Positions 13,441-64,000 of a stretch of 64,000 nucleotides of DNA are shown piece after piece. Each line of letters begins with the position of its first letter. Positions within the stretch are counted from its first letter, which is position 1. This DNA is from Euglena gracilis (lineage: Eukaryota). The position numbers were made by a program, and so were the translations under genes. Under the pieces are notes generated by a model. That model searched no databases. It saw only the letters and a list, made by a program, of their open reading frames with translations, and was not told the DNA's origin. The stretch is from contig CP154954.1 in assembly GCA_039621445.1 (NCBI GenBank), positions 34,569,737-34,633,736 on the forward strand. The letters run 5' to 3'.

Positions 13441-13451
13441 TGTGTCACCCC

Positions 13452-13692
13452 AAGTCGACCTAACCCTATCCCTTTCATTAACAAATAAACCCCCTTTATC
13501 CGCCAACCCCTTCTCGGGTGCAAGTCGACCTAACCCTATCCCTTTCATTAACAAAATAAACCCCCTTTATCCGCCAACCCCTTTTCGGGTGCAAGTCGAC
13601 CTAACCCTATCCCTTTCATTAACAAAATAAACCCCTTTTATCTGCCAACCCCTTTTATCTGCCAACCCCTTCTCGGGTGCAAGTCGACCTAA
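13452..13692 (+). repeat. Central spacer with ~3 copies of a ~70-bp unit
   Basis: caagtcgacctaaccctatccctttcattaacaaaataaacccc repeated at ~13451, ~13520, ~13592. Confidence 0.9.
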
Positions 13693-34182: not shown

Positions 34183-34224
<42 letters not shown>

Positions 34225-37200: not shown

Positions 37201-40200
37201 AAATTTTTTGCATTTTTGGCACTTTTTGCCCAAAAGTGCCCAAAATGGCACTTTTGGTCGTTTTGGGGGGTCAAAAATTTTCGGCCACCCTGACCGCGCA
37301 CCTGTTTAGGTGGGGGGGGTCCCCCCCACCCCCCCCCTCCTGGCCCGCAGGGGGGGGGGTTCGGACCACCCCCCCACCTGTCCTTATATCGAACCCTGGT
37401 GGGTGCGTGTGGGTGGATGTTTGTGTGGGTGGGTGTGCGTGAGTGTGTGAAAGTGTGTGCTTGCTGAAAGCAAAAAGGGAGCTGGGGGTGGATGGATTGG
37501 GGACCCCCCAGGTCACCTGCAAGCAAAGAGTTGCTGGAATTCCCACTCAGCCATGTTCATATCAGAGGCAATAAACTCTTTAGGCCGGTGGGGAAGAAAC
37601 CCGCTGCCTCCCCCACCCCCTTTGGGCCAAGCAGGACATAAAACATCAAAACAAAAATTGGACGATCCAAAAAAAATGGGCAGCTGCACATGGGCACGCA
37701 GAGGGGGGGAATGTGTTCTGAGCAGTTTCTTGCAGTTTTTTTTTTGGTGTGGATTTTTGGATTTGGAATGGATTTTTTGGATTGGAGTTTTTTTTAACAA
37801 ATATTTGAAAATGTCAGGCCAAGGTTTTTGCATCCTTTTTCTTTCATGAAAGTTTTTTTGAAAAAAATCGAATTTCTCTAGGCACAGCAGAAATTTGAAG
37901 TTCTTTTTCTATGCGTTTCTTTTTTGCAGTTTCTTTCTGCAGTTCTTTTGCAATTCTCTGCAGCGCAATGTCAGCGTATTGCACCTCCCTGCCATTTTTT
38001 TCCAGAGCATCGATTTTAGGGTGAATCCTTCATTTGTGGCTGTGCCACCTGGTTTGCAAAGTGGTCAGAAGGGGTGGGTCCCACCCCCCCCTTCATATTG
38101 CGGTCCATCCTTCCCTTATTTGAGCAATGCCATCCACCCATAGCACCTGCCACCTGGAGGGGATGCATGTGTGCGACGCGCCTACACATGCTAGAACATG
38201 CAGGTTCATATGCTTGTTCACCTCCTGGGGGGTCAGACCCCCCCAAGGGGAGAGTCCAGGCCACCCCCCTTTGGACTGAGGGTGGGACCTTCCCCAGGAA
38301 CCCACAAAAATATTTTCCGGGCTTCGTGCTGGGAAAGATGAAAAATTTTGGTGTATGTTTTGACTGATTTTTCCAAATAAAAGTGCGCGGAAAACGCGAT
38401 TTTGGGGGCTTTTTTCAAGCCCCCCCCCCCAAGGGGAGAGTCCAGCGCCACCCCTTTGGACGGAGGGTGGGACCTTCTGGCGTGCGTGCTGGGCGTGGGT
38501 TGGTGTTTTGGGTATGTTTGGTGATTCAAATAAAAGGTGGATTTGGGAGGTGGCTTTTTGGGTTTTCAAGCCCCCCCAGAATCCCAGCGCTTCACGCCGC
38601 AATTTTTTTTGGGTGGATGCACGTTGTTGGGGGGTGTGTGCAGGTTGGTTAGGGTTTCAGGTGAAAAAATAAGACACCTGGGGGCTTCGTGGTTTTCAGA
38701 TTCCCAGTTCAAAAATCGAGGTCGGGGTTTTTGGAAAACCCGTAATAAATTATAGGAAGTTCGTGCAGTTAGTTGTGTCCCCCCCGCCTCCTGGACTGGG
38801 GGGGGCATCCGGACCATCCCAGAAGACCGACCCCTGGGGGACCCCCCAAAAGATCAAAATTTTCTTTCCGTCGCTGCGAGCCATTTTTTTTTTTTTTTTT
38901 TTTTATTTTTTTTTTTTTAAAAAGTTCCAAAAATGCAGTTTTGGCCGCTTTGGCGTCGAAAATTTTTCGGCCTGGCACAAAGCGCCGGGCCGAAAAGTAG
39001 TCACCTGGACCACGCTACCGTTCAGGTGTGGGAGGGGGATGTCACTCCCCACCTAAACAGTAGCACGGTCCAATCCCCCCCTCCCACCATTGGGGGGTCC
39101 GACCCCACCTTCCCTTACAGCAGGGAAATTAAGTAGTGGGACGGTCCAGGGAAACTAAATAGTGGAACACCCCCCAAAAATGCTAATCCCCCGGAGACCA
39201 TCTGCGAGTTGCAAAGGCTTTTCAAATTGTTGCAATATCAGGAGGCTTCAATGTGCGGCATGTATAAGGTGTACCCAGTACCATCCAACGGATGGCCTAG
39301 GGCCGTGGGGGGTCTGTCAGTAACGGGTGGGACCACCATGAGCATCGAGCACAGCAGCAAGGCGGCTGGGCATCGACGCGTATAAAACTCGAGTTTGTTC
39401 GGGAGAAATGTCAGCAAAAGCACACTGCAGAGCTGCCCAAAGTTCGTTTCGGTTAGGGAAAACACATCCTTCGAGCTTTGCAAGCAGAAACACCCACAGG
39501 TGCTCGATCGGGTTGAGGTCCGGGCTCATTGTGTGCCGCAAACAGGCCTCGTTTCTTCACCTTGCATGGGGGGAGGGGGGCAGGGTGTTCAATCCACCTC
39601 TTACCTGGGAGAGATGCATCTGCCCCAGCCCATCATTTCCCCCCATTTGCTAAGCCTGTGCCTCACACTTCACAAGGGGAACGGTTTCGATGAGAGCTTG
39701 GAAAATGCATCATTCATAGTGGACCGCGGAGACCTCCCCACGCCTACACCTGGCAAACTGATGAGATCCGCAAACTCCAAGCAGATGCCTGCGCAGGACC
39801 CGTTATCCAGCATCTTCACGGCATTGTCCCGCAGCCAGGACGTCGTGCTTCTTGCTCGGTGGGCCGGTGCACCATCTTGTTGGATTCTCCAGCATGAGGT
39901 TCTGCGCAAACACATGCTAACCAAATCGATTCAAGGGGAGGTAGTATCTTTGCATGCCTGAATCAAAGCAAATGTCTGGCAATGAAATCACCATGTCTTC
40001 CCATGTTTCGTTGAGGTGACTATAGAAACTACCTCCGCTTGAATCGATTTGGTTAGCATTTCGCATGTGTTTGCGCAGAACCTCATGCTGGAGATTCCAA
40101 CAAGATGGTGCACCGGCCCACCGAGCAAGAAGCACGACGTCCTGGCTGCGGGACAATGCCGTGAAGATGCTGGATAACGGGTCCTGCGCAGGCATCTGCT

Positions 40201-43200
40201 TGGAGTTTGCGGATCTCATCAGTTTGCCAGGCGTAGGCGTGGGGAGTCTCCGCGGTCCACTATGAATGATGCATTTTCCAAGCTCTCATCGAAACCGTTC
40301 CCCTTGTGAAGTGTGAGGCACAGGCTTAGCAAATGGGGGGAAATGATGGGCTGGGGCAGATGCATCTCTCCCAGATAAGAGGTGGATTGAACACCCTGCC
40401 CCCCTCCCCCCATGCAAGGTGAAGAAATGAGGCCTGTTTGCGGCACACAATGAGCCCGGACCTCAACCCGATCGAGCACCTGTGGGTGTTTCTGCTTGCA
40501 AAGCTCGAAGGATGTGTTTTCCCTAACCGAAACGAACTTTGGGCAGCTCTGCAGTGTGCTTTTGCTGACATTTCTCCTGAACAAACTCGAGTTTTATACG
40601 CGTCGATGCCCAGCCGCCTTGCTGCTGTGCTCGCCGCTCATGGTGGTCCCACCCGTTACTGACAGACCCCCCACGGCCCTAGGCCATCCGTTGGATGGTA
40701 CTGGGTACACCTTATACATGCCGCACATTGAAGCCTCCTGATATTGCAACAATTTGAAAAGCCTTTGCAACTCGCAGATGGTCTCCGGGGGATTAGCATT
40801 TTTGGGGGGTGTTCCACTATTTAGTTTCCCTGGACCGTCCCACCATTCAATTTCCCTGCTGTACATTGAATCCTGACTGCGAGGTAAGCATTTATTTGGA
40901 AGGTGATTTTTGAATGTCGATGGTGCGACGGTTGCTCCCTGAAAGTCAGTTGTGAATGCCACGTCCTGGCGACGTTCTCAACGAACGTGTCTTTCCTTCC
41001 AGGATCCCACCTTCACGATCCCGTCCCTCAAAGTGTGCCTCTTCGTGGGCGACGTCCTCATCAAGCGGGACGTGCTGCTGTTGCACAAGCTGGCGCCCAA
41101 CGTCAAGGTGTGCGGGGCGCCCCAGCTGTCCTGCCCGGTTGTTATCTGGATTGCCGTCAACAGACATGTGCGGGCCACCGGCCTCTCAGGTGGTGAACAT
41201 GTTCGGCACCACGGAGACCCAGCGGTCGGTGGGGTACTATGAGGTGCCCCGGGATGCTGCCCAGCTGGCCAAGCTGAAGGAGATCATTCCCTGCGGCCGG
41301 GGCATGCACATGGGGCGGCAAATGACGGCTGGCCTCAGGCCAAGGTGGGTGGGCAGGGCCCATTTGTGGGTGATGCAATGGATTTGAAGCAGAGGCTCGC
41401 CCAGAGAAATTGCAGTTGGAAACATTCCGGAGATAATTTTGTCAATTCATCTGTGCGTTAGTGCTCTCTTTTGGGTCTTTCTAGCAACTGTAGAATCATC
41501 AATTTCTTGCACTGAAAGCCCAAATGCTGCGCTATGTGCTTGTTTTTTTTTAAATACAAATATTTCCCCCCCCTTTTTTGAAATAAAATATCTTCTGAAT
41601 GAAATTTTTGTTTGTTTGTTTTGATTTCGTTTTTAATTATTTTGGAATAGGGTTTCTCAATTTGGCATGTTTCCATTGAGTTCCTCAGAACACCCAACTG
41701 GACCATTTCCTCCAAAAAAAGTCTTGTCCTATTTCGAGCTGGTTGAATTCTCCTGCTGTTCTGAAGCTTGATCTTCACGGCAGTAGTCGCTTTATTTTCA
41801 GAATCCCCCGGAACAACATCCAAACGTTTCATGCGGATTTCGATCGGCGACATTTCTCATCTGGGGGCCGTGCCATGCGCCAGAAGGACGTGGGGTTGAT
41901 TCTGCTGAACAAAGCTGGCCTCCAGGCGGGCTTGGGGGAGGCGGCAGAGATCTATGTGCGCAGCCCGCATCTCTCCAAGGGCTACCTTGGTTTGCCAGAG
42001 GACACGGCAGCCAAGTTCATTCCCAATCCCTTCCACCCAAGGAGGCCTGGAACGCAACTGTCCGCCTGCACACACTCGTGACCACAGACCACAATCGTGA
42101 CCGCAATGTGACGGATGCAAACTCACACACACTCACACACACACACACCACACCACACCACACCACACCACACCACACCACACCACACCACACCACACCA
42201 CACCACACCACACCACACCCACACACAAAATGCATGCGCGCAGACGCATCTACACAATACACACACGTGCACGCACGCACACACGCAAACACACACACAC
42301 ACATGCGCATTCACGTGCGCTTTCTCACTCACTCGCACGCCCACACGCATGCAGACACACCATAAAGACTTTTTACTTGTTAATCACCTAGGCTACCCTT
42401 GCCCATTAACCCTCTGTGGCCTGGGACCGCTGGTACCGCACGGGAGACCTGGGCCACTACCTCCCCAGCGGCGATGTGGAGTGTGTCGGCCGGGCCGACG
42501 ACCAGATCAAGATCCGGGGCTTCCGCATCGAACTGGGGGAGATCAACGCCAAGCTGAGCTCCCACCCGGCCGTGAAGGAGAGCGTCACCCGTGTGGCCAG
42601 CCAGTTCTCTGTGTGCTGACCCTCAGATTAAGTTTGGCATTCACTGGGCTCTTCTAACAACCGGGGTGTCTTGGTTTAACTCTGATTGGGTTGCTTTCTA
42701 AGTTGGGGAAATCGGCCACAATGCTTGCAGAGGCACCGGCAGTGCTTCACATGAGAGTTGGCTGCCGGAGGCGTTGGACCGCGCCGGCGAGAAACAAATT
42801 GTGTGCTACGTCGTGCCCACCGCAGCAGCGGCCGCCCAAGTGGCCACGCTGCCGGGTGAGCTGCGGGAGCAGGGTTCGATGCCGGGGGGTGTCCCAGCTT
42901 GAGGTGGGGAGGATGTCCCCCTCCTGTGGTCGAGGGTGGGACCCGGACTGATACCCCTCTCCCGCTCTCACATCGAACCCTGTGTGGGAGTTCCTGAAGA
43001 CCAAGGTGCCCTCTTACATGGTGCCCAAGGCGGTGATTCTGCTGCAGAAGATGCCGCTGACCCCGAATGGAAAGATTAACCACAAGGTCGTGCTCGGCTT
43101 TCCTTGTTCACAGCTGGAGGGCGCAAACAAAACACGCATTTCCCAATCCTAATCCAAACTCAGATTTGGGCGGTTCACAACGGATTTTGGTTTTTTTCCC

Positions 43201-46200
43201 ATAAAGGGCCAGCCCTCAAGGACAGCCCTCAGGCCAAAGGGCCGTCCAAGGGGCGGATTGGGGCACGAACAGGGTCGAAAATAAATGGTTGAAAAAACGC
43301 TTTTTTTGACGTTTTGGGTGAAATTGCATCCTTATACAGCAAAAGAAGTTAATTGCCTGAACCGTTTATTCTTTATAGTTGCTGACCCGGGAATGAAGGA
43401 GACAATTTCAACGCTGTGATACCTCATGCATGCTGTTCATGCTGTTCCCCTCTCTCAGGCATTGCCTCCGCTGGACAGTGTGGATGCGGACCTTCCAGAG
43501 AACACGGCCAGCCTGGACCACCTCACTCCCACCCAGCTGAAGGTGCTGGAAGTGATCCGGGCTGCCCTGCACACCAATGCAGTTGGTGTGAGTGCATGGG
43601 CATGGGCCGGCCAATGTGTCCAAACGACCTCAAGCAATGTATGCAAAGCCTGGCACAACACAAGTCACTTTGACATATCCTGTGAAATGAGTGCATCATC
43701 ACCCGCAGTTCATCGCTCCCCCCCTTCTCTCCTCCTTCCTCCATTCATTCATGATTCATCCCAGTTCATCCATCATCGCTCCCCCCCTCCATGTGGATGC
43801 GTTGCCAGGGAGGTGGATGGCCCTCCGTGTCGGCTCTGATGCTCATTGGCTGCACACTGGCATGGCATGGCAACCTGGCGGCCCAAAACGGCCCTCATCG
43901 CCTCCACAGGCCCGGAGGACAACTTCTTCAATGTCGGCGGCCACTCCCTGGCGGCCATCCGGACCACGATGGAGCTGAACAAAACGTTCGGTATCCAGCT
44001 GCCCACCTCCGTGATCTTCAACGAGCAGACCGCTGGCCAGGCCTCTTGTGGCTGTGACAACTGCCGCCGGCTTCAAACAACACTCCTTTTTTTGCTCTGG
44101 ACCACATTCTCACCCAACCTTTTTCTATCTTTTCCCTTTCCTCTGCTACACAAAACGTTTTTTTTTCCCATTCATCCATGTCTCCCCTCTCTGGTTCATG
44201 TTCTTCAACACATCGCCTTCCATTTTCCAACCTCCATCTGGAGAACTCTAAATTCAATCAAATTCACATGAGAAGCTGGGGGGCAGGGGGGGTGAATGAA
44301 TTGCAAGTTGCAGTTGCGCTTCGCAGGTTTCGAGCCCCAGGGAGGTGCGCACAAGCGGCCTGCGTTGTTCGCATCGGGTCGGCGGTCGACGCCGTGCGGT
44401 CCGGCAGTGCGGGCAAGGCGGCGGCCCCCAAGGTGGACATGCTGGCCGAGGCGGTGCCGGCGGCCGACATCCAGGCGCGGGACGGGGCCATCCCGCCGTC
44501 CGGCAAGCCAGTTGGGGTGTGCCGGCCTTCCCTGGAGCAGAAATGCAAGGGACTACGTCTGTTCCAACTCCACAGTGCGGGTTTGATGTAATATTGGTTC
44601 GGACGAAAGTGCAGTCAAAAAATGGCCCAAATGTTCCCAGACGAAGGAAACAGCACAAAATTTTGCAGTGGCCCATTTATGAAATGGTCCGTTTTAATGA
44701 GATGAATAACCCCTCCCTCCCCCAAATACCCCCCAAGTGATAAAACCCCCAGACTACCAGGTTTTGTGTTGCGCCGGTGGCACGGCACAGGCGCGCAGCT
44801 GGCCCTGGAGATGTGGGGTGATGGATGGTCCCCAGGGCTTTAACCCCCCTCCCCAGTTAGAAGCCCCCCAGGGCTACTATTCGGTCAGTCTGCAATTCTT
44901 TTTTTACAAAAAAAATGCAAAAATGACAAAAGAGACAAAAAATTGCCAGGAGACAAAAGAAAAAAACGATAAAAAAAACACAAAACACAACAAAAATGCA
45001 GAAACATAAATTTTCCTAAAATCAAAAAAAAAACCCAAAAACGCTTTGCGTTCCCCCCTGTCATGTATTTGCAAAATGTTCAAAATCAAAAATTGACCAA
45101 AAGAATCAACAGGGCACCTGTGCCCCTTTTTGCAACTTAGGGTCTTTTTTTTCCCCCACAAACAGGCACCCTTTTGCGACTACTATTCCGACTACTATTC
45201 TGACTAATTCATCCTTTTTTGTCATTTTTGAAATGCTTTTGATGATTTTTATTCCTTTTTCTGTGCCTTTTTCCACAGTGTGGAAGGGATAGTTTATTAT
45301 TGGGCAGCCGAAATTAGTACTTGGGGGGGCAGGGATGTTTGGGAAGTCCTGAGGTCAAGACCATACCATTGCTTACCAACCCCCCCCCGGGGGGAGAGGG
45401 TAGCTTGCCGTTTTCAAAAACCAGTCACCCACTTCCACCCGGGGGGGGGGGGGCGTCGGCCACTTTGGCCACATAGCCAAAATGGCCTAAAATCAAGGGA
45501 TTTTGGCCAAAAATCCCAAAAATTTTCTGGCGACGGGTGGCCATTTTCAGGAATTCCCAGCTGCCCACACTGCCAGAAGGGGGGGTCTGAAAAAAAAACA
45601 ATCAGCAACACCCAGCGGGGGGGGGGAGGTCACATTTTAAGGAGCGGTCCGGACTCCCCCTCCCAACACATCAAACCGGACTGTGATGCACACCCACCCG
45701 ACAATGATGCACAACCACCGAACGGTGACACACCTCCACCGGACAGTGACGCACATCTATGGACTGTGACGCATATGCACCAGACAATGACTCACAGAGG
45801 GATGGGAGCCCCCCGACCTCGAAACGGTAAGGGGCCAGGAAAATTTTTGGTCTGTGGATGGTCAAAGGGTACCGGATACCAGACCAAAATTGTTGGGAAA
45901 TCCTGATCCTTCTTTGAAAAAAATTCTGAAAATGCTCATTTTGATTTTTTGGCATTTTTTTTAATGTGGAAAACAGTACAATATGCAGAAATGTGCAATA
46001 TGACTGAGTGTGCAACATGATTAAAATGAGGAAGAGGACTTCCCAGCACAACAGCGCCGGAAACTAAAATTTAGCCATTTTTAGAACCTGCCAAGGATGG
46101 TCCGGACACCCCCACCCAACATCTAGTAGGGGTCAAGACCCCTACTCCAACCTCAAACCGACAGGCTTCCCATACATCCCTGGGGGGTATTTATCGCTGA

Positions 46201-49200
46201 CCTCTTATCTCTTCAGTGTTGCTTAACAGTGAAGCTTAACACCGGGAAAAGGGGGACCCCCCCACAGGTTGGTCATGAGAACGGCGGATTATCACCATGA
46301 CCCCGAACCCATTCCCAGAAAAAAATTTTCAATCGCAAGCGACTGGATCCCAGCTTTCCAAATTGTTTGACACCGAACTCCCATCCAGGCCCGAGTTATT
46401 CAGCCGACAAAGGGGACTTCAGGTCCTGGGTAGGATTAGCCCCCCCACCCAGTTTCGACTCTGCTGTTTCGCCGGGGTAAGATTTTGGGTTGAGAAATCG
46501 ATTTTTCAAAAGAATGTCGTACATTATTGCCGAAAGTGTCTGCCAGACCAAATGTGCCCCTGGAGACCCTCTAACCCCCCCCATTCGTCATTTTTAGCCG
46601 CCGACACACCTGGCACATGTTCGGGCTTGGTTTTGTGGCCCAAAACAGCCATTTTCTGAGTTCATTTGATTTTGGGGTGTTTTGGGGCATCTTTTGGGGC
46701 AGTTTTTTTTTGGACTTTTGGGGTCAAAAAATCGAAAATTTCAAAACATCAAATGGTAGGGAATGAAAAGATTGGGCTCCTAAAACAAACCCCCCCCAAG
46801 CCAGGGTTGCTGTTTTTTTTTTGTCGAGGAAATTTTTGTCTGACAAAACATTGAGAAACATTCGAAAAAAAAGGGTCTTTTTGTGTTTAAAGAAGTTACG
46901 ATTTGCCCATGGGTGAAATGGCTCACTTTCCTAATCCTTTTTCAGCTTCATTGGCCCTCTAGTGGACAGGAGGAAGCGGTGTGGGCCTGCTATGGCCTGA
47001 ACTACCAAAAATCCAAATAGCAGCCCCCCAGGCAGCCGCATGTATTCAAGGCGCTGGCAAACTGCAGACACATAAATGCAACATAGATCAAGTTTTTGCC
47101 ACACTTAGCAGTCTTTTGGTTTCTTGAACCATTTGGTGAGAGAGGGTTGGGCAGGTTTAGATATAAGGAGGGCGTACATGGTTTAGGTGGGGGCGTGGCC
47201 CCCCCCCCCCCCCCCCCCTCCTGGCCCGCAGGGGGGGTCCGCCCCCCCCCCCCCACCTGCAAGGGGAGTCCGGACCGACCCTGGGGGGGGGTACCCGGGG
47301 GTACCCAATTTTTTCCTCCGGCGCTTTGTGCCGAAATTTTTTTGCATTTTTGGCCAATTTTTGCCCAAAAAGTGCCCAAAATGGCACTTTGGTCGATTTG
47401 GGGGGTCAAAAAATTTCGGTCACCCTGACCGCGCCACTGTTTAGGTGGGGGAGGGTGTCCCCCCCCCCCCCCCCCCCCTCCTGGCCCGCAGGGGGGGTCC
47501 GGACCACCACCCCCCCCTCCTCTCCTTATATCGAACCCTGGGGTTGGGACAGAGGGACGCTTAGCAAATGAAAAGAGCAATTTCCACATCGAAGTCCAAA
47601 AAGCCAGACTTTTTACACCTGGTACAAAGTGCAGAAGATTTTTTAGGCTGCAAAAGGGTACCCAATTAGAAGCCCCCCCCCCCACTTCTAAACCAGCAGA
47701 AAGCGGAAAGTGTGCATGCCAGCCAGGGCATAGCTTAAGAAAATTTGACCCCACCCCGGGGGGTCCAGCCAGCCAGCCAGCAGCCTTTTCCAACCCGGGA
47801 ACCCCCCTTCAACGAAAATTTTCCAGCTGCCCAAAGGGCGGCTGGACGGTAACGAATTTTTGTTTTCAGGGGTGCAAAAATGGCAAAAATGGGTCAAAAA
47901 TAGGCGAAAATGGGCGAAAATGGGTCAAATTTGGGCTGGCCAACAAAAATTTGGGGTCAAATAATACATTTTTTTTGCATAATTGCCAGTTTTTGGGGCA
48001 TTTTTGTGATTTCGATTTTTTTTTTGGTACCCGGTTCGACCCCGAGTCAGGCCCAGCTCCAGCCCCGGACCCTGGGGGGGGAAACGTCCTGATGCCAACT
48101 GAAATATTTTGCATGCAATTTGCTTTTTTTTTGGCTTTTTTTGTGAGTTTTTTGTGGGGTTTTTGTGTTTTCTTTGCTTCTTTTTGCATCGCTTTTTTTC
48201 GAGGGTCCAGGTTGTGTCACCCCCAGCAAAAATGACACCCACCAAATGGAAAAACTCCCGGCCCTCGATTTCGAGTGTCCAAATAATTACCGGGGTTTTG
48301 GTAATAATTTTGGGGTTAGTTGCCACTGTTTGTTGCTTCTGACGTGCCCAAAATTTTACTTTTCCCCCAAGGAATCTGCTGAAATCAGGGTTTTTTTTAG
48401 TCGTGGACCCCCGGGGGGGGTAGGGTGGGTGGGTCCGGCTGAGCCCCGCCCCCCCCCCCCCCCCGGCCGAAGGCGCAGAAAAAGTGCTATTTTAGCACTT
48501 TCGCGATTTTTCGGCCATTTTTTTGTGGGTCCCCCGGGACCCCCCCCCCCCGGTCTTAAAAAAACCCCTGCCTGAAATACACAGTGCGATGGGGAATTGG
48601 GCAAAGATAAATTTGTTCCGATAAAATTGGTGGCAGAAAAATCAGACAAAATCCTTGAATGGCCCAGGTTACTGAACAGAGCCATTGCGCACTTTACGTC
48701 CTCCTCCGTAGCCTTTTTTTGTTCGTTGCTGTCTGCGGTGCTGCCTCACAGGCCTTCGTCACGGGGGCGGACGGGTTCGTGGGCAGCTTCGTGGTGCACA
48801 CTTTGGTGGAGCTCACCGACTGCCCCATCTACTGCCTGGTGCTGAGTGAGAGCGTCGACGAGGCCAAGGCTCGGATGACTCTGCCACTCCCTCCCTTGCT
48901 CTTTTTGCTGCTTTTCTGCAGTACAATGCAGACAAAAATTACAGGAGACAGAAATTATGGGGGAAAATATTATGGGAATATTTTGTTTTTGAAAAAATGA
49001 TTGGGAAAATTCAAAAGTTGAGGGAAAATAGCGGGAAATTTTTGTCAGTGGTAATGAATATTTTTTTTTGGCAAAAAAGGCAACTCAAAGTTCCAAAAAT
49101 GGTCAAAATGGACGTCATTGTGGCTTTCCGCTTTAAAGTCACCCCAAAAAATTGACAATATTGCATAACTCCATCTTTTTGTGTTTTTGAAGTTTTGACC

Positions 49201-52200
49201 AACCTTGAAACCCCCCCCCCCCACAAAGGGCGCAAGAAAGGAACACTGGACAAACATTACGGGAAGAAAAATGATGGAAAAATCGTGGTAGTTTCTCAAA
49301 GTTTGCCCGTATTTTTTTTGTCCAGACTGTAAGCCTCGAATGCTTACTTCCATGTTGTAGGATCCCCCCCCCCCCCCGGGAGTCCAGGGCAGACTCCCCC
49401 CAGGGGGGGGTCCTGGTCCAGAGGCCCAGGTTTAGCCTCATGGGTATGGGCCCCGGGGTGTCCATGCCTGCAAGGGAGGGTGTGCAGCTGCGCGCTGGAG
49501 GCCATCGGTCGGTGGACCGACGCGTGCGAGGGCCGCCTGCGCATCTTGCCGGGCAACCTCGCCAAGCCCAAGCTGGGGCTGACGCCTGAAGCCTACGAGG
49601 ACGTGGCCAACAACACCGACGTCCTGTTCCACGTCGGGGCGTGGGTGAACTGGCTGCACGACTACTACACCCTGAAGCCCATCAACGTCGGCGGCACGGC
49701 AGAGAGCAGGGCACTCCTGGACATTGTGTGGGCAGAAGCCCATGTCCTCTATTCGGCTTTTTTTATGTACCAAATATGGAACAAATGGTCGAAAGCCAAG
49801 CCCAATGCCCTTGGAAATCGAAACTCAACCTTCGGGGCGGTTTTTGACAAGTTGGGTTCAGTGAAAAGGGCCAAAGAACTCACCGTGTTTGTCACCCTGA
49901 ATGCCAAGTTTGGCAATGGAATTGCCTGCCTGTTGAATTTCTAGCCGCACCCGCAGTTTTTCCAGAACTCATAAAAGGGTGATTTCCGAAAAGAAGCATG
50001 TTCCCGCGGCTTCTCCAGATGGGCCGCCATTCAAGGCAATTGGTTCGGGGCGAAGCGCCCTGCCGTCGGTGCTGCGGCTCGCCGTCGCGGGGTCGCGCCT
50101 GAAGAGCTGCCACCACATCTCCACCACCAACGTGTACGAGACCCCCTCCCTGCTGGCCAAGCCATCCGTGCCACCCAGGGAGTGGGGCCGTTGCTGCCAC
50201 CCCCCCTCCTCACCTTTTGGGCATTTGTGGTTCCCCGCGGCGATGACCTGCTCCTCTCCCCCCTCCCTGGCTCTGGAGCTGCTGGACCTCACGGTGACGG
50301 AGGGCATTGACGGGGGCTACAGCCAGAGCAAGTGGGTGGCCGACGCCATGATGGGCAACGCCCGGCGGCGGGGCATCCCCGTCTCCGTCTACCGCCCCGG
50401 CTTCATCACCGGTGCGCGCCTCACTGTGTGCATGTGCGTGTCAGGGGAACACGAGGGCTTCCGCTTCTCCCATGAGAAAGGGGTTACACATCGTTGCAAC
50501 GTCTTGCAGAACCTTCCAGAGGGTGCAGCCATACCCAATTTTGCCCCAGCCCAGCAGCCCCGCCCCTAAAGATGAATGATGGGATTTCTTCTGCCCTTTC
50601 TGCTTTTGCATCAAAGCAAGACGAGCATCTGGCGACGTTGGCGCTGTAAAAACAACCACGACAAACAACAACAACAACCACGACAAACAACAACAACAAC
50701 AACAACAACAACAAACACAACAACAACAACAGCTGTTGTTGTTGTTGTTGCTGCTGTTGCTGCTCTCTTTAACCTCCTGCAGCGGGTGTCTCCTCTTGCG
50801 AATCTCAGCCACGAGCATCAGGGTCCACCAGAGAAATGTCGCCAATACAGGCACGTGGTTTCTCTTCAAAGGATTTGCAGACCCCCAGCCCTGATTTTGG
50901 CCAAGCGGTGCTGCAAGCCAAGCCCCCCATCCTGCCGCCTCCCCTCTTGTCCTTCAGGTGATTCACAGACCGGCAAGTGGACCACGGACGATTTCCTCTG
51001 CCGCTTCCTCAAGGGCTGCACCCAATTGGGCCTGCACCCGGATCTGCCGGGGCACTTGGGGATCGACATGTCGCCCGTGGATTACGTCGCGGGGGCGGTG
51101 GTCCGGCTGGCCATCAACCCCGACACGCATGGCAAGACGTACCACGTCGTGTCCCCACAGCTCTTCCCCTACCCACGCTATTTTGAGTCACTGCGGTGTG
51201 TTGCTGTTATCCTCATCTCCCTGCGTGTGGTTTTTCTGTGCGTGTGCATTCTTCACGTAAGAATGCCCGTCAGCAAATTTTGTTGCCACTTGAACGTTGG
51301 GGGGCCTGAGGGGTCCGGCTTAAGAATTCCCCGAACAAATGTTATTTCACTTTCACTTTGCATAATAAACCAGGCAGCATACAGCATGCATGCTTAAAAA
51401 AATATGATACTGGACCAGAGCACCAACCAACATTTTTTTTTAAGAAAAGGACTAAACATGCCAAAAATGGCATTTTTTGAGCTCCTGAGGAGTGGCCCTA
51501 GTTGGTTAAGTTTAAAACTCACAAATTTTTTATGGCCTTTGGTTTTTATTTCTTTTTGGGCTTTGCTGTTTTTGGGGGGGGATTATAATTCTAAATTATC
51601 AGTATCTGAATTTGAATCCGGGTTAATCCGGGTTATGGGCAACCATTACGCACACATGTTGCCAAGAAACTCCCTGATGTACAGCCGCCATAAGGAAAAC
51701 AGGAACAGTTTTGCTGCCCTGCCGTTCATTGCAAGAATTGCTGTGCCACTGCTTCTCACTTCCTCGGACAGGCGCAATGGTTACGCCGTCACCCCTGTAC
51801 CATATGCTGAGTGGCAGCCAGAAGGATGTTCCCATCTTCTTTGGGCTTGCTCCTCCAGTCCCTCCAGTAGATCCACCCCACCCCCTCCCCCCCTCCCTCC
51901 CGCTCATTTCAAACCCTCTGGGGGGATCCCACGCTGGGCAGGTGGTGTGGAAAAGAAGGCTGTTTTTGCGCATCCAACCGTGGCCCATCACCTGGTCCCC
52001 CCCCCCGCCCCAACGGGAAACACGCCTCTGGGGGTGGCAGCGGCTGATCGCCGCCATCGCCGGCCAGGGAGACAGCGCCGAGCCCAACGCCCTCACGGCC
52101 ATCCTGCCAACCTTCACGGAGAACTGGCTGGACACGCGCATCCGCCCCGCCCAGGCTGCCCAAGGCGCCCTCCACCTGAAACTGTTTTTTTGGAAGCATT

Positions 52201-52596
52201 TTTTTTTTGAGCCTAGAAATCTTTTTCTCTTTGGGGTTCCGCCAAGATTTTTTTTTGCATGATGGCATGCTGAAAGGGTGAGCGTAGTATTTTATTGCCA
52301 AGTGATTTATACTGGGCTTATACTTAGCACTTGTGTTTATTTGCTGTCATTCCCCCTTTTTTCGCCTACACCGAAGCCCTCTGTGGCCTGCGGCCAAGTG
52401 GGAGCGGACAAATCTGGATGCGGGCCTGGCGAGCGTCCCCGGCGGCTTCGCGTTCCCCGACATCGACGCCACCATGGACGTCTACCTCCAGTACCTGGTG
52501 GATCTGGGCTTCATGCCGCCCAACGACCGGCTGAAGCCGTCCGGGAAGACCCACCTGCTGATCACCCGCATCGCCCCCCGCCCTGACCAGCGCTGA
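18161..52596 (+). CDS. LYS2: Alpha-aminoadipate reductase (LYS2-type, NRPS-like ADA/C*-A-PCP-R), ~30 exons, start codon not located
   Basis: Hand-spliced exons give motifs in the correct order: [201 protein letters not shown] at 52594-52596. Confidence 0.93.
18380..18644 (+). CDS. LYS2: LYS2 exon: [47 protein letters not shown] (contains apparent indels)
   Basis: In-frame join across paired-end intron 18252-18379; LPLRLDFS lies in a shifted frame, implying small indels. Confidence 0.75.
18709..18741 (+). CDS. LYS2: LYS2 mini-exon (W)NDIEAAAGVSQ, needs one extra G
   Basis: Bounded by two paired-end introns (cagggctgggtgg/ccacccagcactg; cacgcaagtgc/gcaattgtgtg). Confidence 0.55.
21311..21364 (+). 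CDS. LYS2: LYS2 exon [18 protein letters not shown]
   Basis: PLF..VF motif of C domains; GT donor at 21365; in phase with the next exon. Confidence 0.75.
21771..21901 (+). CDS. LYS2: LYS2 exon [38 protein letters not shown]
   Basis: cattgcag acceptor; end-of-C-domain motif Y..LF. Confidence 0.85.
22502..22655 (+). CDS. LYS2: LYS2 exon [33 protein letters not shown]
   Basis: Resembles the LYS2 linker before the A domain; GT donor at 22656. Confidence 0.9.
22920..24910. repeat. Intronic copy or copies of the ccgaaccggcgtc element family, with a poly-T tract at 23039-23179
   Basis: Shared blocks with 3660-4700; 22940-23034 is repeated at 24808-24905. Confidence 0.7.
25291..25697. mobile_element. 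MITE (taaacccccccc-aaataatacccc TIR)
   Basis: Inverted ggggtattatttggggggggttta at the right end; internal subrepeats aataatacccc. Confidence 0.75.
26259..26997. mobile_element. MITE (aacccccc-aaaataagacccc TIR) hosting the short Foldback-family element
   Basis: Inverted ggggtcttatttttggggggggtt at the right end. Confidence 0.75.
26329..26645. mobile_element. Short (~320 bp) member of the same Foldback-like family, nested in another MITE
   Basis: Same ends (gggctcccggatctggcctggg...ccaggccaaatctacccc); one satellite monomer at ~26458-26497; flanked by the duplication cccgagggg. Confidence 0.85.
27803..27850 (+). CDS. LYS2: LYS2 exon [16 protein letters not shown] (A1 motif)
   Basis: ctctccacag acceptor; TYEEL is the A1 motif; not in the ORF track. 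Confidence 0.85.
29041..29499. mobile_element. MITE with CAGGGG...CCCCTG ends and internal (gcgcattttt)n repeats
   Basis: Inverted ends; flanking duplication cccaata. Confidence 0.75.
30739..32095. mobile_element. Two ~640-bp MITE copies in inverted orientation (~30739-31382 and ~31454-32094)
   Basis: Each copy has aacccccccc..atttaaaccgac / gtcggtttaaatggggggggtt ends; the second is the near-identical reverse complement of the first; ~70-bp gap. Confidence 0.88.
32829..32954 (+). CDS. LYS2: LYS2 exon [27 protein letters not shown]
   Basis: A1-A2 region; in frame with both neighbours. Confidence 0.9.
33209..33347 (+). CDS. LYS2: LYS2 exon [33 protein letters not shown]
   Basis: A2 motif LKAG..DPAYP; GT donor at 33348. 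Confidence 0.92.
33986..34146 (+). CDS. LYS2: LYS2 exon carrying the A3 P-loop (..AMVAFTSGSTGIPK), frameshifted as assembled; copy 1
   Basis: cccccag acceptor; [29 protein letters not shown] followed by indel-broken ttcacc..gggtccactggcatccccaag. Confidence 0.7.
34392..34620 (+). pseudogene. Second, more degraded copy of the A3 exon and its acceptor
   Basis: Parallels 33948-34144 (gctttggaggggaactc...ttcacctctgggtccact..catccccaag) with many indels; separated from copy 1 by a G-rich tract. Confidence 0.65.
36304..36365 (+). CDS. LYS2: LYS2 exon ..[18 protein letters not shown]
   Basis: Matches the LYS2 H.SL..YF.WM...F segment; 5' phase unresolved. Confidence 0.8.
36524..36625 (+). CDS. LYS2: LYS2 exon [34 protein letters not shown]
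   Basis: LYS2-characteristic A4 variant [18 protein letters not shown]. Confidence 0.95.
36857..36968 (+). CDS. LYS2: LYS2 exon [37 protein letters not shown]
   Basis: TPG.LA.WM and TPAMGQ motifs; GT donor at 36969. Confidence 0.93.
36993..37398. mobile_element. hAT-type MITE, family 1
   Basis: TIRs cagggtttgatataagga / tccttatatcgaaccctg; perfect 8-bp TSD gtgggtgc (36985-36992, 37399-37406). Confidence 0.92.
39118..40861. mobile_element. Palindromic Tc1/mariner (IS630-Tc1-mariner) derivative made of two inverted 3' ends
   Basis: TA|cagcagggaaatt...aatttccctgctg|TA; ~830-bp arms with ~80-bp spacer; each arm encodes QQDGAPAH and SPDLNPIE transposase motifs. Confidence 0.92.
40089..40662 (+). 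pseudogene. C-terminal fragment of a Tc1-like transposase (D-37-E spacing after removing intron 40186-40441); mirror copy at ~39317-39890 on the minus strand
   Basis: [47 protein letters not shown]...[20 protein letters not shown]-terminal half missing. Confidence 0.88.
41003..41107 (+). CDS. LYS2: LYS2 exon [35 protein letters not shown]
   Basis: AG and GT boundaries; FVGD.L.KRD motif. Confidence 0.93.
41190..41305 (+). CDS. LYS2: LYS2 exon [29 protein letters not shown] (A5)
   Basis: NM.GTTETQR motif; ctctcag acceptor. Confidence 0.95.
41883..42034 (+). CDS. LYS2: LYS2 exon [38 protein letters not shown] (A6)
   Basis: GE..EIYVR...L..GY motif; 3' end approximate. Confidence 0.92.
42124..42360 (+). 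repeat. (CA)n and (CACAC)n microsatellite in a LYS2 intron; similar tracts at 34640-34855, 57100-57240, 58905-59160
   Basis: Seen directly. Confidence 0.9.
42408..42594 (+). CDS. LYS2: LYS2 exon ..[47 protein letters not shown] (A7-A8)
   Basis: Canonical A7 and A8 motifs; 5' end approximate. Confidence 0.95.
42770..42866 (+). CDS. LYS2: LYS2 exon [22 protein letters not shown]
   Basis: In frame between two paired-end introns. Confidence 0.9.
42988..43086 (+). CDS. LYS2: LYS2 exon [33 protein letters not shown] (A9-A10)
   Basis: PSYMVP and PLTPNGKI motifs; GT donor at 43087. Confidence 0.95.
43459..43585 (+). CDS. LYS2: LYS2 exon [27 protein letters not shown] (A-PCP linker and PCP helix 1)
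   Basis: AG and GT boundaries; in frame. Confidence 0.9.
43910..44034 (+). CDS. LYS2: LYS2 exon [25 protein letters not shown] (PCP, phosphopantetheine Ser)
   Basis: FF..GGHSL motif; ccacag acceptor. Confidence 0.95.
44367..44516 (+). CDS. LYS2: LYS2 exon [27 protein letters not shown] (PCP-R linker)
   Basis: GC-rich coding-like segment in frame with neighbours; GT at 44517. Confidence 0.8.
47152..47540. mobile_element. hAT-type MITE, family 1 (second copy)
   Basis: Homologous to 36993-37398; perfect 8-bp TSD gggttggg (47144-47151, 47541-47548). Confidence 0.92.
48386..48570. mobile_element. hAT-type MITE, family 2
   Basis: cagggtttttttt...aaaaaaacccctg; TSD gctgaaat/cctgaaat (7 of 8 match). 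Confidence 0.85.
48752..48877 (+). CDS. LYS2: LYS2 exon [31 protein letters not shown] (R-domain Rossmann motif)
   Basis: TGxxGFxG NAD(P)H-binding motif; ctcacag acceptor. Confidence 0.93.
49492..49703 (+). CDS. LYS2: LYS2 exon [44 protein letters not shown]
   Basis: Thioester-reductase motifs; 5' end approximate. Confidence 0.93.
50068..50172 (+). CDS. LYS2: LYS2 exon [35 protein letters not shown]
   Basis: HIST motif of SDR-type R domains. Confidence 0.9.
50275..50411 (+). CDS. LYS2: LYS2 exon [28 protein letters not shown] (YxxxK catalytic motif)
   Basis: GY.QSKWVA motif; GT donor at 50412. Confidence 0.95.
50958..51195 (+). CDS. LYS2: LYS2 exon [36 protein letters not shown]
   Basis: TDDFL.R.LKG..QLG and PVDYVA motifs; AG and GT boundaries. 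Confidence 0.95.
51772..51815 (+). CDS. LYS2: LYS2 exon [14 protein letters not shown]
   Basis: ggacag acceptor; GY.V..V.Y..W motif. Confidence 0.88.
52039..52148 (+). CDS. LYS2: LYS2 exon [30 protein letters not shown]
   Basis: NAL..L motif; junction position ambiguous within the direct repeat gtggcagc. Confidence 0.85.
52396..52596 (+). CDS. LYS2: LYS2 last exon [27 protein letters not shown]
   Basis: Y..YL...GF.P C-terminal R-domain motif; TGA stop. Confidence 0.92.
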   Translation, partial: KWERTNLDAGLASVPGGFAFPDIDATMDVYLQYLVDLGFMPPNDRLKPSGKTHLLITRIAPRPDQR

Positions 52597-52599
52597 GAA

Positions 52600-52883
52600 C
52601 AGGGGTTTTTTGAGTCTCGGACCCCCTGGGGGAGGGGGGTAGGGTGGGTGGGTCCCTTGGACCCCCTCCTCTCCCGAGGGGGTGGGGGTAGGGTCTGGGT
52701 ATATCTTTTTTGGCGCCGAAAATTTTGAATAAGGTGCTATTTTTGGCATTTTTGGCCATTTTCCGGCAAAACTGGGTGGGTCCCCCGGGACCCCCCCCCC
52801 CCCGGGGGGGGCGGCCCAACCCCAGGGGGTTGGTGGGTGGGTGCCGACCCCCTCCCCCCCCCCCGGTCTCAAAAAAACCCCTG
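52600..52883. mobile_element. hAT-type MITE, family 2, inserted at the LYS2 stop codon
   Basis: caggggttttttgag...ctcaaaaaaacccctg; perfect TSD gctgagaa (52592-52599, 52884-52891). Confidence 0.92.
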
Positions 52884-54340
52884 GCTGAGAAACGGCCTTC
52901 CTCCGTATGACTGTAATGAATGGTCAGCTGCGTGCGCAGGGTGCCGCATGCACAAGTTGTCACGGGGTCAGAAAGCGCGCTGTAATCCATCCCACTGTGA
53001 TCTTGGACGGAACTGCTTTCTGAACACTTTAGTCGAAGAGAACGAACCGCTTTGAAGCCTTTTAAACTCTGAAAACCCTTTGGAGATGGTTTGGGGCAGG
53101 GCCAAGATTCAACACCTGTGTGACCCCCCAGTGGGTGCGGGGTGGTTTGGCTGTTGGACCCCCCTTGGGGGGGGGCGATGGGCCGAAAAACATTTTCCAG
53201 CTTTTTCAGCCCATTTTGGGTGGGTTTGGCTGGTTGGGTGGGCCACCACCAGATGCGTGCCACTTTGGAGGGGATGCCAGCCAGCTGTGTGGTATGTGGT
53301 TTTTTTGGCGCGTTGAGAAACACCGACCAGGGACAAAGTCCTTGCGAGGCCGTGCCTTGCTCGCCAGCGGTGCTTTTCTGGATGGGTTTGGGGTCCCTGT
53401 TTGCGGACGATATGGCGCCTACCTGGCTTCTTGTCCCTTCCCTCCTCTTCCTTCCCCCTGGCCCCCATTTCCCGCCGGCGGCGGGCTTGAAGTTCCTGGT
53501 TCATTTTCTTTGGCATTTTGCAGTGAGTGACGCTTTTGACTCACATGCCTTGCTCGCCGGAGGCCCTCTGGATTGTTGCCTGTCGATTTGGATGAAGGAA
53601 CCTGCCTTCAACAACGCGCACGCTCAAAGAGGCCTTCAAAATTTTGGCCCAGCTGCCGGACTTCTTCCTGCGTTCGCTACCCCACTCCCCCGAAGTTTTC
53701 TATTTTTCTCCGAATGGTGCGTCGGGAGACAAACGCTAAATTTCAGAGAGAGAAAAAATAGCGGCAACCAACTTGCATCCGGACGATGCGCTTCAAACGC
53801 AACTTTTTGGCCTTTCAGCACCTGGAATTCGCTCCAATTCGGGGCTGGCCTTTCAGCACCCGGAATTCGCTCCAATTGGGGTTCTGGCCTTCAAAATCTC
53901 TGTGACACATGGAAATAAAATTCCATATGCAGCCCAGGTCTGTGCGAGGAACGATGACGGTGCAGATAGGTGCAAATATTACAACCAACAGCAATTTAAT
54001 GGGGGAAAGAAAGGATAACCGTCGCGAGGCTGACGGCCATGCTGGGCTGCCATCACTTGCCCCTGTGCCACCGGACTCAGAATTGCCGGAATCCTCACGT
54101 GCAGCATCATCAAGAAGCAAACCACCTGAAAAAAAGTTGAGGAAAAATCTCAAGACTGAGAAAATAAAAATTCACACATTGAACATGTTTTCCCAAGCAG
54201 GGGCAAGGGTTGTGCATCGCAGACCATTCCATGCACCAAACAACGTAAAATGAGGCAGCATTCAGAGGAGGCCTGCGTAACGCTGTAATATCGCTGTAGC
54301 TGCCAACACAAGCACGTGACGCGTCCCGCCGGGGTCAGCG

Positions 54341-61010: not shown

Positions 61011-64000
61011 TGCGGCCTCGAGTTGGCTGTATTATTTCCCCCCAAAATACGCCACTCGGAGAGAAATCGATGACTCTCTGCTTGGTTTCTCTCAGGGTGC
61101 AGCGGGGGAGGGGGGTACTTGGAAGGGGGGAAACTCTGCACCACTAATATAAACGTGCCAAAAATATGCCCCGGAAATATGCCCCCGGCACGTTGTTATT
61201 GGGGGTTTGCACCACACAGTCAGGCAGTGCTTTTGAGATTGCCCTGTACGTAGAAGGGCGGGGTGGTGAAGTTTGACATTCAGGCCAGGTGGGGTTCCAA
61301 ACCCTGCTTTCCGTCCAGGGGGAGATTTGACAAAATGCATCTCCACCGGTGGCAAGATTGGGCGTTTTTTAAAGCATTATGGTGACTGCAACCTGGGTGT
61401 GTACAAAAAAAACCATGTCCTCCAGGGAAGAAACATAAAACAGCAAAATCAAACCCCAATGCAATTTGAGAGGGGTTACACCAGTTACGAAATGGGCATT
61501 TCTTTTTGCCTCTTTTTGCCTTTTTGCCTACACCAGTTTGCGCATTTGCGGAGTTTTTCTGAGATTTTTTTAATGAAAATTGTCCAAACGTTTACACATA
61601 AGTGCACGTTTGGACGGTTTTGGAAGATTGGCACGGTTTGTACGTGTTAATGCAATCTCAAGGATTGAGCCCTTTCAGCCGTCATGCCCCTTTTTTTCCA
61701 TTACGTTAGGTGGAATTATTTCTTTTTCTGACACTTCTTGGTGAACATATGTGATACACAAAATTTCACTTTGTGACAAATGAATACTCTTTTTTGGGGT
61801 GATACAAATGAAACAAACCTGCCCTTGCACCAACGTGGGGGGACACACTGTGTACAGGTGGAAAAAGATTCCCCCCCCCCCCACAAACAAGGTGCAGCTG
61901 AACTGCAACACCGTTCTGGGATTCGGGAAGAATTTTTATAGAACTGGCATATTTCTCAGAAGTTTCCAAGCACAACATGAACACAATTCTCTCCTGACGT
62001 GCCAATGGACATCCTAGCTCTCTGGCAGGAAGGGGGCACGGGTTGGGTTCCCAATGGCAATGACACAGAAAACCTGCCAAAAGACGGCCGCGGGAGGGAT
62101 ACACGCCCAATGCGGTCACGGCTATCGATGCAAGGCGGGGTCAAATAAACGGGAAAGATCCTTGAACCAGAGATTCACTCACCCCCTGGGGGGGGGGGAC
62201 TTTTCCCCGGCCCTGAACCAACTCACCCACTTTTGTTTAAAACCTCCCCCCACCCACCCACGACCAGGCTGTTTTTTGCCAACCCCCGGGGGGGGGAGGG
62301 GGAGGTCCGGAGTGCCTGTGAGTGCCTGCCCAGGCAGGCACTGCCCCCCCCCCGGGGGGGGGTTGGATTTCGGCCTGTGCCTAGGCATATTCCTTTGAAA
62401 ATAGGCCATTTTTGGCTCCCCGGCGTTGTGCTAGGGCACTTTTGGCCGTGTGCCCCCCTCCCCCGGGGTCGGATTTGGAGTGCCTTGGAGTGCCTGCCCA
62501 GGCAGGCACCCCCCGCCCCGGGGTGGGGTCGGCACCTGACTTAAATACAGCCTGCCCATGACCCCCCCCCCCCCAGGGGTCAACCACCCACTCACCCACC
62601 CAAAATCAAGCCATAATTGGCCGAAAATGCTGATAAAATGTTTCCAGCCTGGCTTTTGGGCGGATAAAAACTGACCCCTGGCGCACCCCGGGGGGTGGGA
62701 GTCCTGGCCACCCACTCTTGAAACCCCCGGCAGGCTTGTATGGGAATCTCAGAGGGGGGGGGGAGGGACCCCCCTTCCTACCTCCAGTTTTTCGGTCGCC
62801 GAACTTCTCGCTGTTGAGTGCAAAACTTCGGCCCTTTTTTGAGTCAAAAATGAATTTTTCTGAAATTTCTCAAAAATGGCGGGGAGTTAAAAGAAATATC
62901 CAGAGACTTAAATTGAAGCCCTTAAAATGCCCCATCTAACAGTATTTGATTTCTCCGCAACTCCCCGTCTAGCCCGAGTTATGAGCATTTTTCGACCAAT
63001 TTTGGCTGTTTTGCCAAAATTTCATACTGAGCGTCAAGCAGGCTGGTGCTCACCGACCGGGGGGGGGAGGGGGGGGGTGCTATGGGGTGCCTGCCCCTAG
63101 CAGGCGCACCGCCCTGAGGTGGGGGACCCAGAAAACTTTCATTGAAAATGGCCTTTTCTGGGCCCCGGTGCCTTTGGCGCTGGGCTCAGAGGGGGGGGGG
63201 TGCTTGCTATGGACAGGCTGGTGGGCACCCGACATGAAGCGTCAGAAGTTTTTTTTTTGCCCCTGCAGCTTCGAGCCAGTCTGAAAGAATTCAACGCCTC
63301 AATATCGACCGAAAATGCTATTCAGGGCACCTTTTGAGGCAAAAACCAAAATTCAGCCGGGCTATTTTTCTGCCAAAAAAAATGAAGCGAAAAAACCAAA
63401 AATAGATAAAAAAAGTATTTTTGTCGATTTTTGACCACTTTTGTCCCATCACCCAGCTTGGGTGTGCTGGCCCAACTTCATTTCAGCGGACCACAGGGGG
63501 TCTGGACCCCTACATGGGGGGGGTCAGACCCTCCTCCTTTCGAAACGGCAAGGTGCCAGGAAAATTTTCGGTTCTTTGGACGGCCAAAGAACCGGATATC
63601 AGGCCAACATTGTTGGAAAATCCCCAATTTTTCTTTGAAAATAAAATCCAAACATCCTCTTCTTCTTGAAAAATTTGAACTTTTTTCCCCATGCGGACGA
63701 ACACCAAAGCATCCAAAAAAGTGCAATGTGCTGAACAGCGAGCAATATTATGCATTTTCCGGCATGCAGCGCTGGAAAAAGTTTTTTGGCGTTTTTGAAA
63801 CCTGTCAACGAGGGGGGTCCAGACCCCGGCCAGGGCGTGGGGGCACCCTGGCACCCGCCTGGTCGGGGGGAGCCGAGTGGGGCAAGGGGCCGAAGGAGGT
63901 CTTGGAGGCCCAGGCTGGAGGCAGGCGGGCGGTCACTCATCCACCTCCAGGACCCCCCATGGCCTCAGGCAGCTGGCCATGCCGGACCCCTGGAGGGCAG

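Follow-up and report, generated by a model that had tools for sequence, protein, structure and literature searches.

A miniature transposon at the stop codon of a Euglena gracilis LYS2-type gene is missing from the mRNA and is very likely spliced out as a nonconventional intron

In the 64,000-nucleotide (nt) stretch of the Euglena gracilis genome analyzed here (contig CP154954.1 of GenBank assembly GCA_039621445.1, positions 34,569,737 to 34,633,736 of the forward strand; referred to below as the window, with coordinates counted from its first letter), a LYS2-type gene on the plus strand carries a short transposon directly at its stop codon. This element has the properties of a MITE (miniature inverted-repeat transposable element), being short (284 nt), non-coding and bounded by terminal inverted repeats that are complementary at 12 of 12 positions. 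RNA sequencing reads from this gene run across the insertion site as if the element were not there. We consider it very likely that the MITE is removed from the mRNA as a euglenid nonconventional intron and that its removal restores the sequence present before the insertion.

The element spans positions 52600 to 52883 of the plus strand, with arms that are rich in G-runs and C-runs and a centre that is richer in A and T. Its terminal inverted repeats were delimited with a repeat finder as CAGGGGTTTTTT on the left (plus strand, 52600 to 52611) and AAAAAACCCCTG on the right (plus strand, 52872 to 52883); if an offset of one T is allowed, the inverted arms reach approximately 13 to 15 nt. On either side of the element lies one copy of an 8-bp target-site duplication (TSD), GCTGAGAA, located at 52592 to 52599 and 52884 to 52891 on the plus strand and identical at all eight positions. 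The left copy contains the TGA (52594 to 52596) that serves as the in-frame stop codon of the last coding exon (...PDQR*). Read across the insertion, the letters are ...cag cgc TGA gaa, the element from its start (CAGGGGTTTTTTGAG) to its end (CTCAAAAAAACCCCTG), and then gctgagaa acgg.... An earlier description of this locus (the original prediction) had proposed an element at exactly these positions, with CAGGGG and CCCCTG ends and a perfect TSD holding the stop codon, and both the ends (12/12) and the duplication (8/8) were confirmed. No family match was found for the body of the element, and no Pfam match for the longer minus-strand open reading frames (ORFs) that overlap it (52369 to 52923 and 52565 to 53500).

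The fate of the element in RNA was followed in three raw RNA-seq runs from two studies (X21, X22 and X24) across positions 49192 to 53451 of the window, with depth bins placed such that two of them coincide with the element. In all three runs, we found a joint that connects position 52591 to position 52884 and skips 292 nt. It was carried by 29 reads with 23 different start positions in X21, by 31 reads (25 starts) in X22 and by 15 reads (12 starts) in X24, providing the element-free reads that the original prediction had proposed to look for. A further 8 and 5 reads reached position 52884 with a short overhang, the loose letters of which corresponded to positions 52575 to 52591. Six other junctions in the same part of the gene, which served as controls, were covered by 25 to 52 (X21), 36 to 56 (X22) and 11 to 26 (X24) reads. 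Since the read counts of the joint are thus similar to those of neighboring junctions, essentially all transcripts appear to lack the element.

Sequencing depth told the same story. Ahead of the element, it amounted to 69.6, 62.9 and 20 in X21, X22 and X24, respectively; in the first bin of the element, it fell to 0.13, 0.50 and 1.42 and in the second bin to 4.13, 1.64 and 3.92, after which it recovered to 53.2, 54.4 and 18.9 between positions 52884 and 53025. Depth inside the element was therefore at most approximately 6% of that of the flanks in X21 and X22, while in X24 it was 1.4 to 3.9, versus 20, and came from reads of both directions. The latter run is stranded, and nearly all exonic reads had their first mate on the minus strand (0 to 0.8 in one orientation versus 12 to 20 in the other). 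The occurrence of the few X24 element reads in both directions fits cross-mapping from other copies of the repeat, rather than retention of the element.

Beyond position 53025, depth dropped to 3.2, 4.4 and 0.8 in the following bin, and molecule ends were seen at 53047 (X21) and 53038 (X22), which places the end of the mRNA near 53038 to 53047. The mRNA is thus polyadenylated, without the element, at a site located approximately 150 to 159 nt beyond it, and the segment from 52889 to 53047 (plus strand) constitutes a 3' untranslated region (UTR) exon, as delimited by the depth drop and the molecule ends. Polyadenylation inside the element was ruled out, since transcripts run on to 53038 to 53047 and since none of the three runs contained a cluster of molecule ends within it. 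Retention of the MITE or polyadenylation within it, outcomes named in advance as speaking against an intron, were not seen (a depth of 0.13 to 4.1, compared to 20 to 70 in the flanks).

Because of the 8-bp TSD, the joint can slide by 8 nt, which leaves nine equivalent cut positions. None of these nine yields GT-AG, GC-AG or AT-AC borders; without any slide, for example, the ends of the skipped piece are GC and TG. According to the main text of Nomura et al. (PMC12501133), the splice sites of euglenid nonconventional introns follow a code, established by knock-ins, that reads 5'-N3CDG-/-CH'GN5-6|R. As described there, the 3-nt donor spacer does not tolerate a change of a single nucleotide in either direction, the acceptor spacer works best at 5 nt but accepts a 1-nt insertion, and the next exon begins with a purine. 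Of the nine possible cuts, a slide of 5 is the only one to fit N3-CAG...CTG-N5|R, as GAA-CAG...CTG-GCTGA|G, and corresponds to an intron from 52597 to 52888 on the plus strand that is made up of the MITE with 3 nt of the left TSD ahead of it and 5 nt of the right TSD behind it. Its 5' motif is the CAG of the left inverted repeat, its 3' motif is the CTG of the right one, and the length of the skip (292 nt) indicates that the N5, rather than the N6, acceptor spacer is used. This is the very intron that had been predicted, together with the return of the pre-insertion sequence, and the RNA supports it, the slide range of the joint including 52596|52889. All four other non-GT-AG introns between 49192 and 53451 likewise fit N3-CAG...CTG-N5|purine, each at a single slide.

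These findings can be combined into a simple scenario. A short non-autonomous DNA transposon would have inserted in an 8-bp target, GCTGAGAA, that contained the LYS2 stop codon and would thereby have duplicated that codon. Transcribed as part of the pre-mRNA, the element could then pair through its inverted ends, with 3 nt of the left TSD and 5 nt of the right TSD remaining unpaired at the foot of the stem. Euglenid nonconventional splicing would cut 3 nt ahead of CAG and 5 nt past CTG, removing 3 + 284 + 5 = 292 nt (52597 to 52888), and the exon junction of the restored mRNA would fall directly after TGA. Restoration would be exact because the two spacers (3 and 5 nt) together have the length of the TSD (8 bp), and the protein is the same with or without splicing, since a stop codon is kept in the left TSD copy. 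Pairing of the ends may well be what drives recognition of the intron. In both the minimum-energy and the centroid RNA fold, positions 52600 to 52614 are predicted to pair with 52869 to 52883, while 3 nt at the start of the intron and 5 nt at its end stay unpaired; the fold was used for this geometry only. By analogy with other nonconventional introns, the excised intron would leave as a circle.

The most serious alternative is that the element-free reads stem from an empty allele, or from a near-identical paralogue, while the element-bearing allele is silent or produces unstable transcripts, a situation that we consider improbable. Two sources of DNA sequence bear on it, namely the assembly of the window itself and a set of DNA contigs (run X1). 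Not a single X1 contig contained the element-free join of 52591 to 52884, and one contig of 508 nt (52141 to 52648, with a depth of 75.9, compared to approximately 104 to 109 nearby) ran from the exon 49 nt into the element. Moreover, position 52503 is a T in the window and a C in this X1 contig, such that both variants lie beside the element in DNA. In RNA, C was found in 39 of 76 (X21), 45 of 63 (X22) and 10 of 20 (X24) reads, and the two variants together account for all reads at this site. Both element-linked variants are thus expressed, in mRNA from which the element is absent, which argues against an empty allele as the source of the reads, as do the near-complete absence of the element from transcripts and the fit of the site to the code proven by knock-in (PMC12501133). 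On the other hand, the RNA runs may come from a strain other than that of the assembly, and intermediate-frequency variants were observed in RNA at positions 50965, 52118, 52450, 52503 and 53031. X1 carries the non-window base at 50965 and 52503. The other three (52118 G>A, 52450 G>T and 53031 A>T, at approximately 22 to 42% in X21 and X22) were absent from both the window and the X1 contigs and may belong to yet another haplotype. It appears that several haplotypes of LYS2, or several strains, are present, and the five sites could reflect differences between strains or alleles, as opposed to RNA editing. The two haplotypes known to bear the element differ at approximately nine places in 4.2 kb. 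An empty allele had been put forward in advance as one of the observations that would undo the case for splicing; as far as X1 is concerned, none is seen, and in the RNA cultures themselves it is unlikely.

Removal by the ordinary spliceosome, through cryptic sites, deserves consideration because the same gene contains 11 GT-AG introns and because in other lineages introns of transposon origin are known substrates of the spliceosome, as summarized in the main text of a review (PMC11282704). However, at none of the nine equivalent cuts does the skipped piece start with GT or GC and end with AG, and among the joints listed for the RNA runs there is no second one at this site, making this a very improbable explanation. 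We deem it even less credible that somatic transposition has emptied the site in the DNA of most cells, with the RNA merely reflecting this state. The element does look intact and is of a very abundant type, but X1 retains it at normal depth without any empty junction. Furthermore, cut-and-paste elements usually leave a footprint when they excise, and every read across the joint was exact.

Several observations weigh against nonconventional splicing of the MITE and temper our confidence in it. Depth inside the element, of up to 4.1, compared to approximately 70 ahead of it, would allow for retention in a few percent of transcripts. The predicted fold energy did not significantly exceed that of shuffled sequences (z = -1.79; 9 of 200 shuffles were as good), owing to a composition that is itself rich in G-runs and C-runs. 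In X1, the right junction of the element is represented by one 60-nt contig with a depth of 2.9 and 30 and 29 letters on its two sides, which is under the 31-letter bridging rule; besides, X1 consists of contigs, which drop rare variants. The DNA evidence comes from the assembly and from X1, and the three RNA variants absent from both sources count on the same side.

The gene itself extends over much of the window, from the first mapped exon at 18161 to the approximate mRNA 3' end at 53047 on the plus strand, as judged by the mapping of a transcript-derived protein, Pfam domains and RNA ends. The protein, P0001 (1,295 amino acids [aa]; labeled eukprot EG_transcript_671), could be placed on the window in collinear order, its residue 22 falling at position 18161 and its residue 1295 at position 52593, with one exon being 100% identical, and its C terminus (...RIAPRPDQR) ends exactly at the TGA at 52594 to 52596. 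The last coding exon (52396 to 52596, plus strand) is defined by a joint from 52146 to 52394 (with a slide of 2), by its open frame and by a translation that equals the C terminus of P0001. Encoded are adenylation, carrier and thioester-reductase domains, which P0001 contains as well. In stop-to-stop ORFs on the plus strand, Pfam identified AMP-binding (a weak match, 36435 to 36659), AMP-binding_C (42952 to 43149), PP-binding (43840 to 44268) and NAD_binding_4 (48659 to 51193).

For assignment to the LYS2 family, scoring against the LYS2 model was done on exon pieces. These match TIGR03443 (L-aminoadipate-semialdehyde dehydrogenase, the LYS2 equivalog) collinearly, from profile position 454 to 1241 of 1390, with E values from 8e-15 to 3e-3, each of them far under the full-length cut-off. 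TIGR03443 was the top match for three of the six exon pieces with matches, and TIGR01746 (thioester reductase) ranked first for three reductase exon pieces.

Using P0001, we placed 28 coding introns in the LYS2-type gene, a census that leaves out residues 129 to 153 (near 18604 to 18741) and 386 to 424 (near 34030 to 34147). Eleven of these introns are GT-AG introns, and nine fit the nonconventional code, one of which can also be read as GC-AG. The remaining eight, located between 18251 and 49489, fit neither GT-AG nor the strict code and have related ends instead, for example N3-CAA..TTG-N5, N3-CAT..ATG-N5 and N3-CAC..GTG-N5, with the same spacing. Their sequences suggest that the code may be looser at the third position of the motif than CDG/CH'G implies. 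We also noticed that P0001 splits into short pieces with frame changes at 18427 to 18741 and at 34030 to 34147; small introns, indels between alleles or errors in the assembly may lie behind these breaks.

One of the nine code-fitting introns, at 42867 to 42987 on the plus strand, lies in the coding region and corresponds to a MITE-like element of 113 nt (42870 to 42982), with ends, CAGGGTTCGATG, that are complementary at 12 of 12 positions and flanks, TGCGGGAG and TGTGGGAG, that agree at 7 of 8. Its removal by the same 3 + 5 rule reproduces the P0001 residues across the junction, as established by protein comparison. With it, the LYS2-type gene has two young transposon-introns. A second copy of the MITE type found at the stop codon, 185 nt in length and with the same termini, is located at 48386 to 48570 (plus strand), inside a conventional intron (44517 to 48751), and is flanked by gCTGAAAT and cCTGAAAT (7/8). 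In a blastn comparison with the element at the stop codon, its last 30 nt were 96.7% identical, while the remainder showed 63% identity over 204 columns. Two copies are thus present in 64 kb, with TSDs that match at 8 of 8 and 7 of 8 positions.

Beyond the window, the type of element found at the stop codon appears to be highly repeated. With 13,399 contigs of X1 mapped, the summed word depths over the element were 128,044 and 420,328, compared to approximately 100 in the flanks, values that do not represent copy number and are inflated by runs of G and C. A search of the window with the terminal 15-mer, allowing for at most three mismatches, returned 11 matches where 9.0 were expected, which is uninformative by itself. 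More telling was a scan for pairs of CAG and CTG with complementary ends. In the window, 508 such pairs were complementary at 10 or more of their 12 end positions, and of these, six had 8-mer flanks that matched at seven or more positions at the correct offset, compared to one pair in each of five controls with shifted offsets; with a threshold of 9 of 12, there were six at the correct offset versus 2, 2, 2, 2 and 1 in the shifted controls. The arrangement of CAG...CTG ends with 8-mer flanks therefore exceeds chance expectation.

Further candidate elements were noted in the window. Two of them, at 36993 to 37398 and 47152 to 47540, are both situated within LYS2 introns and have ends of the CAGGGTT(T/C)GATA type and 8/8 flanks; their centres resemble that of the element at 52600. 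Their TSDs are less certain, the flanks being embedded in low-complexity DNA that is rich in GT or in G. Outside the LYS2-type gene, a candidate of 290 nt was seen at 62265 to 62554, with ends CAGGCTGT(T/A)TTT (11/12) and flanks CCCACGAC and CCCATGAC (7/8).

As to the class of the transposon, MITEs of the hAT superfamily (Ac/Ds-like) are characterized by an 8-bp TSD, short inverted ends that start with CAGGG and a small non-coding body, the terminal motif of the superfamily being of the YARNG type. Other superfamilies also produce 8-bp TSDs. The element at the LYS2 stop codon resembles hAT MITEs in all three respects, including CAGGG at both ends, and judging by these features it putatively belongs to this superfamily. 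It differs from complete hAT families in that neither an autonomous partner nor a transposase was found in the window. Pfam searches revealed no transposase in 133 plus-strand ORFs between 33 and 49.9 kb plus three exon pieces, and no transposase or hAT partner among 141 ORFs from either strand of the window with a minimum length of 125 aa, a scan that left out 22 plus-strand ORFs of this length (33038 to 49941) already included among the 133. A match to DDE_3 at 40423 to 40659 was rejected as noise (E = 0.009; 16.3 bits, where the cut-off is 28.6). The assignment to hAT made in the original prediction is based on the TSD and the CAGGG tips and is regarded here as putative.

The perfect ends and the perfect TSD of the element argue for an insertion that is young relative to the other code-fitting introns of the gene, the flanks of which match at 2 to 5 of 8 positions, with the exception of the intron at 42867 to 42987 (7/8). 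Given that the element lies beside both variants of position 52503, however, it predates the split between these haplotypes. It is for this reason that "fresh" or "newborn", as the insertion had been called, holds in a relative sense: younger than the other code-fitting introns, but not brand new.

A few additional features of the window are worth recording. A near-perfect palindrome at 39116 to 40863, located in a conventional intron of 4,034 nt (36969 to 41002), has arms of 623, 187 and 36 nt that are 94 to 98% complementary, and looks like a foldback-type element. Two satellite arrays (8632 to 13939 and 14134 to 17370), built from a 112-nt unit with sub-periods of 34 and 78, have opposite orientations and meet near 14.0 to 14.1 kb, a short distance upstream of where the mapped LYS2 exons begin. 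They account for the very long ORFs in multiple frames in that region (up to 1,112 aa, with only low-complexity Pfam matches) and for a flip in GC skew. Finally, a trinucleotide-rich repeat at 50648 to 50767, within a conventional intron (50412 to 50957), was excluded as a repeat from read mapping.

In most respects, the intron at the LYS2 stop codon behaves like the euglenid nonconventional introns described in the main texts of Nomura et al. (PMC12501133) and Milanowski et al. (PMC3935182), with non-GT-AG borders, CAG at positions +4 to +6 and CTG at positions -8 to -6. The likeness extends to ends that can pair (as predicted here), a purine at the start of the next exon, efficient removal and the use of the same code by neighboring LYS2 introns. 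It differs from them in its position in the 3' UTR, right after the stop codon, and in being a complete transposon of an apparently highly repeated type, with perfect ends and a perfect TSD. Nonconventional introns are excised as full-length circles, independently of the lariat pathway, as was reported by Guminska et al. (2021) according to the main text of a review (PMC11282704), which describes the machinery as unknown. Among the joints listed for the three RNA runs, no back-joint of the LYS2 element was seen.

The same review, in its main text, discusses introners, which are spliceosomal introns of transposon origin found in Micromonas, Aureococcus, dinoflagellates and others (PMC11282704). 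As with introners, a DNA transposon and its TSD would supply the splice signals, such that insertion in a transcribed region creates an intron at once. Unlike introners, the LYS2 element follows the euglenid nonconventional code rather than GT-AG, and both cuts fall inside the TSD, by which the mRNA is restored to the letter. A second parallel is found in maize, where Ds elements were reportedly shown by Giroux et al. in 1994 (as referenced in PMC3935182) to be spliced out of transcripts. There, too, a non-autonomous cut-and-paste element within a gene acts as a new intron. Removal of Ds uses spliceosomal sites and is usually imprecise, whereas removal of the LYS2 element is exact and would follow a different code.

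Nonconventional introns, their code, the TSD-like repeats at their borders and the hypothesis of a MITE origin have all been published before (PMC3935182, 2013; PMC11282704, 2024; PMC12501133, 2025; PMC12621601, 2025), although that origin is referred to in the main texts of these papers as unclear, as only "possible" or "plausible" or with the remark that MITEs "may be their source." In the main texts that we searched, with scarce coverage of subscription journals, we found no published case of a named repeated element with intact ends and TSD that was shown to be spliced, nor a paper that treats nonconventional introns in UTRs. The word "UTR" is absent from the main texts of PMC12501133 and PMC11170887, supplements being outside the scope of this search. 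If our interpretation is correct, the LYS2 locus presents an intact natural transposon that is removed exactly and thereby provides natural evidence for a MITE origin of euglenid nonconventional introns. Since the element is situated in the 3' UTR, where there is no reading frame to rescue, selection on the coding frame cannot explain this exactness.

What the locus adds is an explicit arithmetic, in which spacers of 3 and 5 nt equal a TSD of 8 bp, that ties the splicing code to the duplication. On balance, we lean slightly towards the broader view that the nonconventional code is a transposon footprint, with CAG and CTG representing the tips of hAT-like MITE ends and the 3- and 5-nt spacers representing the 8-bp TSD, and that such families are still making introns in Euglena. 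If so, the introns of the LYS2-type gene would form an age series, from the element in the 3' UTR (8/8), via the intron at 42867 to 42987 (7/8), to the eight older code-fitting introns (2 to 5 of 8). The idea can now be tested genome-wide as well as with the published knock-in assay (PMC12501133). Should it prove true, any such insertion into transcribed DNA, whether in coding sequence or elsewhere, would be removed exactly from the RNA from the day it lands.

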